Source: a virus (Duplodnaviria; Heunggongvirae; Uroviricota; Caudoviricetes). From it: 8,058 bases of DNA. The DNA is taken from positions 1 through 8,058 of IMG/VR virus record IMGVR_UViG_2740892103_000005. One strand, 5' to 3'. A program made the position numbers and the translations under genes. The notes beneath the pieces were generated by a model that did no database searches, was not told the origin of the DNA, and was given only the letters and a program-made list of their open reading frames with translations. This document shows positions 985 to 6,459 of this stretch, piece by piece. The number at the start of each line of letters is the position of its first letter. Position 1 is the first letter of the stretch.

Positions 985-1053
985 CGTCCTGATTTGTACT
1001 CACTCATTTTTCAACTGACAATTTACATAGCCCAAAAGCTATCAAATCAGACA

Positions 1054-1077
1054 GTCTGCTTTGAGCCAAAAGCAGAC
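1054..1077. repeat. Perfect 9-bp inverted repeat hairpin (GTCTGCTTT-N6-AAAGCAGAC)
   Basis: Read directly: 1054-1062 gtctgcttt, loop gagcca, 1069-1077 aaagcagac. Lies between the cargo gene stop and the terminator at 955-984. Could be a second terminator, an RNA processing site or a protein-binding palindrome. Confidence 0.5.
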
Positions 1078-1107: not shown

Positions 1108-1119
1108 TGACCTGCTCCC
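1108..1119 (+). repeat. Direct repeat copy 1 (TGACCTGCTCCC), 3' flank of cargo gene
   Basis: Exact 12-mer also present at 2537-2548. Both copies are preceded by CAATCA at a slightly different spacing. A 12-mer match alone is near chance expectation in 8 kb; the flanking position is what makes it notable. Confidence 0.35.
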
Positions 1120-2548: not shown

Positions 2549-2588
2549 AGTAAACTAACATAGCACGATGTAAGCAAGTTCCGCTTTT

Positions 2589-2593
2589 GGTAC
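2589..2593. repeat. IS2 target-site duplication, copy 1 (GGTAC)
   Basis: The 5 bp immediately outside the IS2 IRR end are identical to the 5 bp immediately outside the IRL end (3925-3929). IS2 is known to make 5-bp duplications. Confidence 0.9.
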
Positions 2594-2634
2594 TGGATTT
2601 GCCCCTATATTTCCAGACATCTGTTATCACTTAA
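2594..2634. repeat. IS2 right terminal inverted repeat (IRR)
   Basis: Imperfect inverted repeat partner of 3884-3924; shared ...CCAGACA...TATCACTTAA core. Confidence 0.85.
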
Positions 2635-3510
2635 CCCATTACAGGCCCGCTGCCGCAGATATTCCCGTGGCGAGCGATAACCCAGCGCACTATGCGGATG
2701 CCATTCGTTATAATGCTCGAACGCCTCTGCAAGGTTCTTTGCTGCCGTTAACCCGTCTGGTTTGGGCATGATACTTATGTAGTCACGCTTTATCGTTTTC
2801 ACGAAGCTCTCTGCTATTCCGTTACTCTCCGGACTCCGCACCGCCGTGTTCTTCGGTTCAAGTCCCAACATCCGGGCGAACTGGCGTGTTTCATTAGCCC
2901 GGTAGCATGAACCATTATCCGTCAGCCACTCCACTGGAGACGACGGAAGATCGTTGCCGAAGCGGCGTTCCACCGCTCCCAGCATGACGTCCTGTACTGT
3001 TTCACTGTTGAAGCCGCCGGTAGTCACCGCCCAGTGCAGTGCCTCACGATCACAGCAGTCCAGCGCGAACGTGACACGCAGTCTCTCTCCGTTATCACAG
3101 CAGAACTCGAACCCGTCAGAGCACCATCGCTGATTGCTTTCTTTCACGGCCACTCTGCCTGTATGTGCCCGTTTCGATGGCGGTACAGCAGGTTTTCGCT
3201 CAAGCAACAGCGCATTCTGGCGCATGATCCGGTAAACACGTTTGGCATTGATCGCAGGCATACCATCAAGTTCTGCCTGTCTGCGAAGCAGCGTCCATAC
3301 CCGACGATAACCATACGTGGGCAGCTCTCCGATAACATGGTGTATACGGAGAAGCACATCCGTATCATCAGTGTGACGACTGCGGCGGCCATCCATCCAG
3401 TCATCGGTTCGTCTGAGAATGACGTGCAACTGCGCACGCGACACCCGGAGACAACGGCTGACTAAGCTTACTCCCCATCCCCGGGCAATAAGGGCGCGTG
3501 CGCTATCCAC
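2605..3510 (-). CDS. insD: IS2 transposase OrfB (InsD), DDE integrase-like catalytic part; expressed as InsCD fusion by -1 frameshift
   Basis: 301-aa ORF (track) beginning (V/M)[29 protein letters not shown]..., recognised as IS2 InsD. Overlaps the insC 3' end in the -1 frame. Confidence 0.92.
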
Positions 3511-3833
3511 TTTTTTGCCCGTCCATATTCAACGGCTTCTTTGAGGAGTTCATTTTCCATCGTTTTCTTGCCGAGCAGGCGCTGGAGTTCTTTAATCTGC
3601 TTCATGGCGGCAGCAAGTTCAGAGGCAGGAACAACCTGTTCTCCGGCGGCGACAGCAGTAAGACTTCCTTCCTGGTATTGCTTACGCCAGAGAAATAACT
3701 GGCTGGCTGCTACACCATGTTGCCGGGCAACGAGGGAGACCGTCATCCCCGGTTCAAAGCTCTGCTGAACAATTGTGATCTTTTCCTGTGTGGTACGCCG
3801 TCTGCGTTTCTCCGGCCCTAAGACATCAATCAT
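3468..3833 (-). CDS. insC: IS2 OrfA (InsC), helix-turn-helix transposase N-terminal protein / regulator
   Basis: Track ORF 3468-3878 trimmed to the internal ATG at 3833, giving [19 protein letters not shown]..., the InsC N-terminus as I recall it. The upstream extension would lie inside the terminal inverted repeat. Confidence 0.9.
3510..3517 (-). other. Programmed -1 ribosomal frameshift slippery site (A AAA AAG) at the insC/insD overlap
   Basis: Minus strand reads GGGCAAAAAAGTGG within the 3468-3510 overlap of the two ORFs, the arrangement typical of IS3-family elements. Confidence 0.7.
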
Positions 3834-3883
3834 CTGTTCTCCAATGACTAGTCTAAAAACTAGTATTAAGACTATCACTTATT

Positions 3884-3924
3884 TAAGTGATACTGGTTGT
3901 CTGGAGATTCAGGGGGCCAGTCTA
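3884..3924. repeat. IS2 left terminal inverted repeat (IRL)
   Basis: See IRR feature; the reverse complement of 3884-3924 aligns with 2594-2634. Confidence 0.85.
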
Positions 3925-3929
3925 GGTAC
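3925..3929. repeat. IS2 target-site duplication, copy 2 (GGTAC)
   Basis: Identical to 2589-2593. Confidence 0.9.
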
Positions 3930-3999
3930 AGAGCAGACTGTCAGATTAAGTTTTACTCTGTGCCATAGATACGTTAGCTCACTCCAGATATCATACAAC

Positions 4000-4527
4000 T
4001 TATTGCGGTATTTCCGGCCATTCAGGATTTGCAGGATCCACACGGCTGACCAGAACGCTGTAGCGTTCCCATGACTCCAGTCGTGCGCGCTCCTCATCCG
4101 TCGCCATATTCAGCCTGACGGCGCGTTCCAGCGGCTGGATAACGCTTTCCGCTTCGGAAAGTAACGCGGCCTTTTGTGATTCGGCCTGTTGTTGCTGTTC
4201 GTCTGCCGTATAAATCCGCTTAATCACGGCACCATCCTTAAACATCCATTTACCTGAGTCATCAGCACGTCGGTTGGCGGTAATATCAGGAACCTCGACA
4301 ACGCTAAAACCTTCAGGGTTAAGCGTTGAAGCATCTCTGGTGATGCCGACAATTATATTATTCTCGTCGTAAACAATCTTTATCGTGTCCTCCTGAAAAT
4401 TATTTACTTCCTCATACCAGTTTTTTCCCTCTTCGGACCATAACCAGATAACATCAAAATTTTTTGTCAGTTGATATTGGGCAACAGTTTTTGGATTACC
4501 CGCAATAATATTTTTTAAATGCTGCAT
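4000..4527 (-). CDS. G: Tail fibre assembly protein (P2 gpG-like chaperone)
   Basis: 175-aa [43 protein letters not shown]...[30 protein letters not shown], recognised as P2 G / Tfa family. Starts 3 nt after the tail fibre stop. Confidence 0.9.
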
Positions 4528-4530
4528 AAA

Positions 4531-6459
4531 TTACACCTGTGCGACGTTATACCATGTTCCATTGATGTATTTTTGTATTGGTCTGAATACTGCGGGGTCA
4601 TCACCATCGACTTCACCGACAATACCAAGCCCGGTAATTACGTGCCCTGCTTTCTCATACATCACACCTTTTTTCATAGTCTGAACAACACGTGTGCCCA
4701 GGCGAATATCTCGTACATAGCGAGAATCCGATTCATCTTTGGTATATGCACCAACATCTCCCGCAGAGGGTTTGCGGGTTGTGGTGTAAAACTCTGACCA
4801 GTCAGCCTCAAATCCATAACCATCACGCGCTGAACGATAATAAATACCGCCGTTCTTATAATTCACACGGAACTGTACGGCAGGGCAACTCCCCTCGCTC
4901 ATATTGAAATGGAGGATTAATGTCGATGCGCCACCAATATTTGCTTGATAGACCCCGCTATTCCAGTTCCAGCCAACAGCTTTATCATTTCCGACAGTGC
5001 TTCCTGTTTTCCCTAAAGCAAATGCAGGCTGCTGGTTTTTCGTGTTGTAGTCTCGTCGCCAGCCAGGAGCATAAGCATCACCATGATTAATATAAGTGAA
5101 TTGAGCGTTAGTGGTGCCGCCTCCGGTGGAAGTGCTTGGTGTTGTTACACGGATGGTCATGGCACCTTTATTACCCATAACCTCAATAACGCAACCTGCA
5201 AGATGAATAGTTCCACAGCCAGTATCGGTAATAATTTTATTATTGCCGTATGACCATGAACATTTGCACATCCAGTACGGATGATTAAATGCACCACGGG
5301 AATCCAGCCATTCAATAAACTGAGCGGTTGTCCAGTTTCCGGCTTCAGTGCTCAAAGCGCCGCTATAAGCACGACAGGCACCGATATTTTTCGTGAAGGT
5401 ATCCTTTCCCGGAATATCCGCACCGTTCTGATCTTTCTGAAGACGTTTTTCAGCATTGTCATAGGCAGACTTCACTGCTTTTGGTGTTGCGGCCAGCGTT
5501 TCAGAATCACTGTTGGTGGCGCTACTGAGCTGGACAAGGCCTTTTCGCGCCGTGGTGGCATCCTGCGCAGTGTATTTCCCGTTAGCAAGGTCATACGCTG
5601 TCTTAACCGCCTTTGGCGTTGCTGCAAGCGTTTCAGAATCGCTGTTGGTGGCGCTACTGAGCTGGACAAGACCTTTTCGCGCTGTGGTGGCGTCCTGTGC
5701 AGTGTATTTCCCGTTAGCAAGGTCATATGCTGCCTTTACCGCTTTTGGTGTAGCGGCGAGCGTTTCAGACGTGCTGTTGGTGGCGCTACTGAGCTGGACA
5801 AGGCCTTTTCGCGCTGTGGTGGCATCCTGCGCAGTGTATTTCCCGTTAGCAAGATCATACGCGGCCTTTACCGCTTTCGGCGTTGCGGCCAGTGTTTCAG
5901 ACGTGCTGTTGATCGCACTGCTTAACTGAGTAAAACCTTTTGCGGTCAGCGAGGCGTCCGGGTGACGTCGTGACTGTTCATGCTCTGCAATTTTGTCATC
6001 AACGTAATCCTGCGTCGCCATCACCGTTGTGGTGTCAATGGTCAGCGCCACTGAGGCCACACTGCTGACGATGATGACCATGCGACAGGTCTGCGAACGC
6101 CCTGAGCCTTCGGCAAGAGCTGGCTTATAACTTTCGGCCATGTTCGCCACGGCAATTAATGTTCCCGCATCATCGTACAGGCCAAGCTCACGCATCCAGA
6201 AACCGCCCACCTCCGGCGGAATAACCAGCTCTGCGATAATATAATTACTGTTTCGTTTGTCCTGGCTGATTTTGTTCAGCGCATGTCGCCAGACTTCATG
6301 GATAAGCCCGGTCTGTCCGGCATCCGGGACAGGCAATTTACCACCGCCATCCCCGACGGCCATCGTGGTAATGTTGACCTTCCGCCCTCCCGGCGCGGTT
6401 GCCGCTGCCAGCTTTGCTGCACCGGCAGTGGTGATAACGGTTCTGAATTTTGTGCTCAT
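4531..6459 (-). CDS. H: Tail fibre protein (P2 gpH-like) with internal tandem repeats and a distal receptor-binding domain
   Basis: 642-aa ORF with N-terminus MSTKFRTVITTAGAAKLAAATAPGGRKVNITTMAVGDGGGKLPVPDAGQTGLIHEVWRHALNK..., recognised as P2 H. GAGGA Shine-Dalgarno upstream of ATG at 6459. Confidence 0.9.
   Translation of the reverse strand: MSTKFRTVITTAGAAKLAAATAPGGRKVNITTMAVGDGGGKLPVPDAGQTGLIHEVWRHALNKISQDKRNSNYIIAELVIPPEVGGFWMRELGLYDDAGTLIAVANMAESYKPALAEGSGRSQTCRMVIIVSSVASVALTIDTTTVMATQDYVDDKIAEHEQSRRHPDASLTAKGFTQLSSAINSTSETLAATPKAVKAAYDLANGKYTAQDATTARKGLVQLSSATNSTSETLAATPKAVKAAYDLANGKYTAQDATTARKGLVQLSSATNSDSETLAATPKAVKTAYDLANGKYTAQDATTARKGLVQLSSATNSDSETLAATPKAVKSAYDNAEKRLQKDQNGADIPGKDTFTKNIGACRAYSGALSTEAGNWTTAQFIEWLDSRGAFNHPYWMCKCSWSYGNNKIITDTGCGTIHLAGCVIEVMGNKGAMTIRVTTPSTSTGGGTTNAQFTYINHGDAYAPGWRRDYNTKNQQPAFALGKTGSTVGNDKAVGWNWNSGVYQANIGGASTLILHFNMSEGSCPAVQFRVNYKNGGIYYRSARDGYGFEADWSEFYTTTRKPSAGDVGAYTKDESDSRYVRDIRLGTRVVQTMKKGVMYEKAGHVITGLGIVGEVDGDDPAVFRPIQKYINGTWYNVAQV
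5470..5935. repeat. Tandem ~120-bp (40-aa) in-frame repeats inside tail fibre gene H, ~3.7 copies
   Basis: Protein repeat unit LSSATNS(T/D)SETLAATPKAVK(A/T/S)AYDLANGKYTAQDATTARKGLVQ occurs 3 times plus a partial fourth. DNA copies are about 90% identical with period 120 bp. The antisense ORFs in the track (5281-5925, 5513-5929) show the same periodicity. Confidence 0.85.

Follow-up and report, generated by a model that had tools for sequence, protein, structure and literature searches.

The window, by which we mean the whole stretch of 8,058 bp analysed here, is the entire contig LSEH01000146.1 of the draft assembly GCA_001637985.1. The P2 late-region gene order is kept across the window, with every gene on the minus strand, and G (tail-fibre assembly) and FI (tail sheath) enclose both an insertion sequence and a cargo gene (Table 1). 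Within H (window ~5470-5930), a ~44-aa unit is repeated four times in tandem, with Pfam Phage_fiber_2 found in 4 stretches, and these repeats also create long spurious ORFs in the other frames. Note that the contig ends (window 1 and 8058) fall inside FI and just past the J start, though IS2 was assembled through, and such breaks in conserved structural genes suggest the presence of a second P2-like prophage in the host. Rfam and tRNA scans of the window gave no matches.

Table 1. Genes, mobile element and sequence signals of the window (coordinates in window positions).
Feature	Position	Strand	Remarks
J, baseplate	7901-6993	minus	full length
I	7000-6470	minus	full length
H, tail fibre	4531-6459	minus	642 aa, intact
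G, tail-fibre assembly protein	4000-4527	minus	175 aa, intact
G-proximal boundary inverted repeat, G-side fragment	3930-3947		18 nt
Target-site duplication GGTAC, G side	3925-3929		single copy in empty alleles
IS2, complete	2594-3924	minus	1,331 bp; 0 indels and 7 substitutions vs K-12 IS2A
IRL, high-coordinate end	3883-3924	minus	42 bp; one A>G at IS position 32
orfA / insC	3468-3833	minus	121 aa; A20T vs K-12
A6G programmed -1 frameshift site	3510-3516	minus	IS positions 409-415
orfB / insD	2605-3510	minus	301 aa; A73T vs K-12; rve integrase core
IRR, low-coordinate end adjoining sduA	2594-2634	minus	41 bp; identical to K-12 IS2A
Target-site duplication GGTAC, sduA side	2589-2593
G-proximal boundary inverted repeat, cargo-side fragment	2580-2593		14 nt; split off by IS2
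Putative sduA promoter, TTGGAT-17-TAATAT	2481-2509	minus	84 nt from the IRR end of IS2
sduA (Shedu), cargo gene	1147-2373	minus	408 aa; 39.5% GC; PADLOC, Pfam and PDB 8PS4
FI-proximal boundary inverted repeat, partner arm	1045-1076		9-bp stem, 6-nt loop; terminator-like on the minus strand
Intrinsic-terminator-like hairpin, strong (GGGCGGGC...GCCCGCC + TTTTCTTT)	965-985	minus	conserved backbone downstream of the slot
FI, tail sheath	2-860	minus	N-terminal 286 aa, open; contig end falls inside the gene

The cargo protein was identified as SduA by PADLOC, with a full-length match (1.2e-219), and carries the Pfam domain SduA_C (3.1e-33) on residues 224-396, i.e., the C-terminal DUF4263 / PD-(D/E)xK nuclease domain that characterizes Shedu. 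In addition, 407 of its 408 residues are identical to those of the EcSduA structure PDB 8PS4, and the cargo is thus assigned, from its sequence, to sduA of Shedu, with the predicted role of a single-protein defence nuclease. The anti-phage activity of EcSduA was demonstrated by Loeff et al. (bioRxiv 10.1101/2023.08.10.552762) for this near-identical protein, which is not the window allele, and the same authors gave the Z/fun hotspot of P2 prophages as a Shedu site. Indeed, gene order and Pfam place the cargo of the window in this slot, as variable cargo found between G and FI and inside the conserved J-I-H-G / FI order, and 108 phage records align to the flanks, yet to only about 22% of the slot region. 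The GC content of sduA (39.5% vs 46-58% in the adjoining phage genes) is as expected for acquired cargo.

The insertion sequence is a complete IS2, in agreement with the first-pass annotation, which had described a full-length element with both terminal repeats, the slippery site and intact insC and insD: both ORFs are open, and the alignment to IS2A of K-12 MG1655 (NC_000913.3 381260-382590) is gapless, with 99.5% identity. The element reads 5'-TGGATTTGCCCC at its low end (IRR) and ...GGGGGCCAGTCTA-3' at its high end (IRL), with the repeat lengths reported for IS2 (IRL 42 bp, IRR 41 bp; PMC3299598), and the terminal inverted repeat arms (2602-2634 / 3883-3915) are 79% complementary. Note that the variant at position 32 of IRL is a common natural one, since the exact 50-mer containing it occurs in 2,387 E. 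coli records. The four characters by which an IS2 is recognized were all found, namely the size and ends, orfA and orfB joined by A6G, the HTH and DDE core domains (Pfam HTH_Tnp_1, 2e-19; HTH_21, 1.4e-10; rve, 1.1e-18; rve_3, 1.8e-18) and a 5-bp duplication, and a conceptual -1 shift at the A6G site would lead to an OrfAB of 409 aa without any stop. IS3 family members transpose by a copy-and-paste route through a minicircle (PMC3299598), and the window IS2 is apparently transposition-competent. Full-length IS2 is present in 4,059 of the 5,426 complete E. coli genomes, with a best identity of 99.8% to the window copy.

The perfect GGTAC duplication noted at first reading was found again, the two copies being identical on either side of the element, and a random 5-bp flank match has odds of ~1/1024. 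IS2 lies in the spacer between G and the cargo gene, is oriented like the phage genes and breaks no ORF, as had been stated; the distance of 75 nt from the G stop was also reproduced, and the distance to the sduA ATG is 220 nt (previously given as about 215).

Removing IS2 and one GGTAC from the window leaves 6,722 bp. Aligned to the P2-like prophage found in E. coli 20A24, this sequence shows no gap and a total of 149 mismatches, and the 80 bp around the junction are identical. The empty site, whose reconstruction from P2-like prophages lacking the IS had been proposed by the first-pass annotation, was thereby recovered as collinear, gapless and with a single GGTAC. A much closer empty allele (CP091506.1) was obtained through an exact-protein look-up, and H is identical to that of an empty-site prophage (613/613). 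The same occupied junction was found in a second assembly, GCA_021657315.1, on a 108-kb contig that begins only ~4 kb upstream of the locus; both junctions are reproduced there, and this recurrence in an independent assembly speaks against a mis-join. This second occupied allele was reached only via the exact-protein look-up and not via the junction 31-mer, as the exact 31-mer across the IRR junction has no match in the genome, viral or metagenome contig sets. Among the 5,426 complete E. coli genomes, megablast identified the occupied junction in none and the unoccupied Shedu-type junction in 53.

On the G side, the flank is identical over 2,449 of 2,449 nt between the window, the occupied allele of GCA_021657315.1 and the empty allele of CP091506.1, and because this flank does not differ from that of the empty allele, the insertion is recent relative to any divergence of the prophages. 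The element had been called 'recent, still-mobile'; its recency is confirmed by this comparison, and its mobility would hold insofar as an intact sequence implies it. Between the two occupied alleles, the IS2 copies show 3 differences, at window positions 3776, 3294 and 2776 (alignment columns 246, 728 and 1246), and the compared flanks show none, either over 320 nt, over the 2,449 nt of the G side or over the 220 nt between IS2 and sduA. One very recent event would not by itself account for these 3 differences. They result most likely from (i) gene conversion among IS2 copies or (ii) short-read consensus error in a multicopy element, and independent insertions are a possible explanation as well.

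The first-pass annotation overlooked that the cargo is Shedu sduA, and also that the slot is bounded by a conserved inverted repeat to which GGTAC belongs; this repeat is split by IS2. In the empty allele, the cargo is flanked by a 32-nt imperfect inverted repeat (27/32 complementary), of which ~5e-6 pairs would be expected by chance, and the GGTAC sits inside its G-proximal arm (TCCGCTTTTGGTAC followed by AGAGCAGACTGTCAGATT), so that G plus this conserved boundary repeat is what lay upstream of the cargo before the insertion. In locus L001, the arms occupy 2545-2576 and 4080-4111. When five P2-like phages with unrelated cargo were aligned (Wphi with orf44, 12474III with SMEK, P24C9 with HAD+NUDIX, pro147 and L-413C), their backbone similarity stopped at the inner edge of each arm, and therefore the arms represent conserved edges of the slot and not a part of the Shedu cassette. 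The boundary repeat is unchanged in P2-like phages with unrelated cargo of either orientation, and each arm consists of 'AATCTGACA' plus a 9-bp stem with a 6-nt loop, the tails pointing outward as in an outward-facing insulating terminator pair.

The proviral Z-region of bacteriophage P2-EC31 (AJ512677) carries the same cassette, with 99.7% DNA identity, in an unoccupied state without IS2. Its depositors annotated left and right inverted repeats, which map to window 2578-2593+3930-4026 and 987-1077. The paper behind this 2002 record is that of Nilsson et al. 2004 (doi 10.1093/molbev/msg223). In AJ512677, ORF1 is 362 aa long (454-1542), and its end falls ~137 nt short of the stop codon of the window ORF (408 aa); this shorter ORF is likely due to a frameshift difference or to a sequencing error near the 3' end of the record.

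Two overlapping stems can be drawn within the boundary repeat. Over 81 IMG/VR boundary sequences, the stem GTCCGCTCY/AGAGCGGAC pairs in 86% of cells and the stem GGCACAGAG/CTCTGTGCC in 97%, and the covariation of both remained at the level of shuffles in these 81 sequences, for which the search pattern had fixed much of one arm; a functional hairpin would thus be permitted by these data. When the empty site is folded, it is the second stem that is favoured (-20.3 kcal/mol, z = -3.2 vs shuffles). The first stem is split by IS2, and the second one is intact on the G side of the element (GGTACAGAG, 3925-3933 / CTCTGTGCC, 3956-3964), where it survives because GGTAC was duplicated. Most phages have GGCAC at this place, and arms with GGTAC are a minority. 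We also considered the G-side repeat as a terminator of the G operon and rejected it, as it is not followed by a T-run on the coding strand and is not called when the empty allele is scanned for terminators.

Further repeats were observed around the slot. A 12-nt perfect direct repeat, TGACCTGCTCCC, is present at window 1108-1119 and 2537-2548, i.e., 31 nt inside each boundary arm, and brackets sduA together with its promoter; ~0.11 such repeats would be expected by chance in the stretch, and the pair may mark a cassette end, serve as an operator or be coincidental. In addition, one P2-like IMG/VR contig (L083) contains two G-side boundary repeats in the same orientation (10204-10224 and 11412-11432), 1,208 bp apart, which suggests that two cargo cassettes with separate boundaries are stacked there.

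Altogether, we hold with considerable confidence that the locus results from the recent insertion of an ordinary IS2 in the G-sduA spacer of a P2-like prophage, and that the element is most likely a near-neutral passenger there. In this course of events, an ordinary IS2 recently entered the spacer between G and sduA, the cut fell at GGTAC within the G-side palindromic repeat of the Z/fun slot, with duplication of the 5 bp, and the site is dispensable for the phage. The sduA promoter is kept, at 84 nt from the end of IS2, and the prophage has gained 1,336 bp, a portable homology block being left beside the defence gene. The P2 structural operon from FI onward has its own late promoter. Because G lies upstream, FI would be served by this late promoter and a strong terminator-like hairpin is located at 985-965, no essential gene should be affected by polarity. 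The only evident cost to the phage is the extra 1,336 bp to package, and this added length could affect packaging. We infer from this arrangement that the insertion would be neutral for both phage development and Shedu expression, and the splitting of the boundary repeat may conceivably be costly to the phage.

The most direct challenge to neutrality would be that IS2 alters Shedu expression, through read-out of orfAB through IRR, through a fusion promoter at IRR or through the loss of read-through from G, which we consider unlikely but by no means negligible. IS2 fusion promoters have activated ampC (Jaurin & Normark 1983), acrEF and neoR, with an outward -35 located in IRR (PMC9330008), and the window shows the arrangement of these activations, with IRR pointing towards sduA in the same orientation. 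The outward -35 would be TGGAAA, as inferred from the 17-nt Pjunc spacer. However, IS2-flank fusion offers a single, weak candidate, TGGAAA-17-TACCAA, which has 4+3 of 12 matches and a -10 without the final T, and the consensus promoter scan called nothing at the IRR junction. A fusion promoter of this kind would have a usable -10 at 16-18 nt (17 nt in IS2) from the -35 of IRR, and the -10 found here matches at 3/6 positions. Concerning read-out, the minus-strand scan gave no terminator-like site either within IS2 or from IS2 to sduA, and since none separates orfB from sduA, the transposase transcript could continue into sduA; on the other hand, P_IRL is described as weak, and OrfA acts as a repressor whose binding sequence is found at the left end of IS2 (PMC3299598). 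Moreover, the native sduA promoter is untouched. Its retention on the gene side, as the first-pass annotation had predicted for 2481-2509, is borne out by its position beyond the IS2 end and by its agreement with AJ512677, as TTGGAT-17-TAATAT coincides with the minus_35 and minus_10 annotated there, although the consensus scan scores it below its threshold. For sduA expression, the near-neutral passenger accordingly remains our preferred reading.

Other explanations concern the insertion event itself. That IS2 marks a decaying or domesticated prophage appears improbable, even though ISEc12 breaks the tail-fibre gene H in strain MLI106K3 and one metagenome contig (L014) joins the IS2-sduA junction to chromosomal acuR DNA and not to G, which, if real, means a split prophage. 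Indeed, no visible phage gene is broken in the window, the insertion is in a non-essential spacer (the visible part of the prophage being 8 kb), and IS-free prophages have an identical H and identical G-side DNA. The 'domesticated prophage region' of the first-pass annotation is not supported, given that none of J, I, H, G and sduA is shortened when compared to IS-free relatives and that the visible FI is open; an IS in a non-essential spacer shows only that the phage DNA was in a cell with an active IS2. It would be more improbable still that IS2 prefers the boundary palindrome as a target and that the window and GCA_021657315.1 represent independent insertions at the same pentamer. IS2 is reported to prefer intrinsically bent targets (PMC3299598), the target palindrome folds better than shuffles (z about -3.2), and the two IS2 copies are separated by 3 substitutions vs none in the compared flanks (320 nt and 2,449 nt). 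Against this, SNPs inside a multicopy IS are unreliable in short-read assemblies, the site is occupied in 0 of 5,426 complete genomes vs 53 empty Shedu-type sites, and one event in one lineage is the simplest account of an identical site, orientation and flanks. Finally, since the window is a whole draft contig of 8,058 bp and IS2 is multicopy in most E. coli, the element might have been mis-joined into the contig from repeat reads, but the perfect 5-bp duplication, the element length of exactly 1,331 bp and the recurrence of both junctions in an independent assembly (108-kb contig) make such an artefact extremely improbable. A single recent insertion of an ordinary IS2 is thus the reading that we retain.

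The metagenome contig L014 (ENA ERZ1304437 NODE_5108, 7,999 bp) deserves a separate description. Its positions 1-2628 contain an IRR-sduA junction identical to that of the window, and its IRL side abuts chromosomal acuR/alcohol-dehydrogenase DNA. The IS2 of this contig has a different 5' half, with 7 other SNPs in the first ~500 bp, and is without a matching 5-bp duplication; the contig has 2.3x coverage and is reported in 3 samples. It represents either a true IS2 x IS2 rearrangement that split the prophage or a chimeric low-coverage contig. There is a slim chance that the boundary palindrome serves as a preferred IS2 landing site and that the IS then acts as portable homology which relocates or splits the Shedu prophage. 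If this were true, IS2 homology would provide one route by which defence cargo leaves the phage or by which a prophage becomes grounded, as L014 hints.

IS2, Shedu and EcSduA, the Z/fun hotspot and the flanking inverted repeats have each already been described, and the insertion adds another copy of a known element. A 2026 survey found transposable elements almost nonexistent in P2/P4 and not in significant numbers in defence hotspots (PMC13586616), and because of this near-absence the occurrence of IS2 in a P2-like defence slot is uncommon, and it is not surprising. Our literature search on IS2 orientation and polarity found no usable account. The insertion matters little alone, and its modest value is that of a clean and datable case in which an IS entered a phage defence hotspot; in addition, the alleles with and without IS2, which do not differ over the 2,449 nt compared on the G side, form a natural isogenic pair for the effect of an upstream IS on a prophage defence gene.

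When compared to known systems, the window IS2 shares with K-12 IS2A the length of 1,331 bp, the orfA/orfB overlap, the A6G site and IRR, and differs from it by its insertion site, K-12 IS2A having its own 5-bp duplication ATTAC and the window copy GGTAC. The same tail-fibre and cargo region also contains an IS in E. coli MLI106K3 (NZ_CP117020.1; locus L020, 3193-7803), whose near-identical Shedu prophage carries the IS21-family element ISEc12 within H; this insertion interrupts and inactivates H, in contrast to the intergenic IS2 of the window. As for the cargo, EcSduA (PDB 8PS4/8PS5/8PS6) has D in the structure where the window protein has E119 and is otherwise the same, and the work on EcSduA used an arabinose-inducible promoter and not the native context (Loeff et al., bioRxiv 10.1101/2023.08.10.552762). 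In the ampC, acrEF and neoR cases, IRR faces the downstream gene in the same orientation as in the window (PMC9330008), but in those cases a usable -10 was available at the right spacing from the IS, whereas in the window the hexamer 17 nt away is TACCAA, and sduA has its own promoter 84 nt further.
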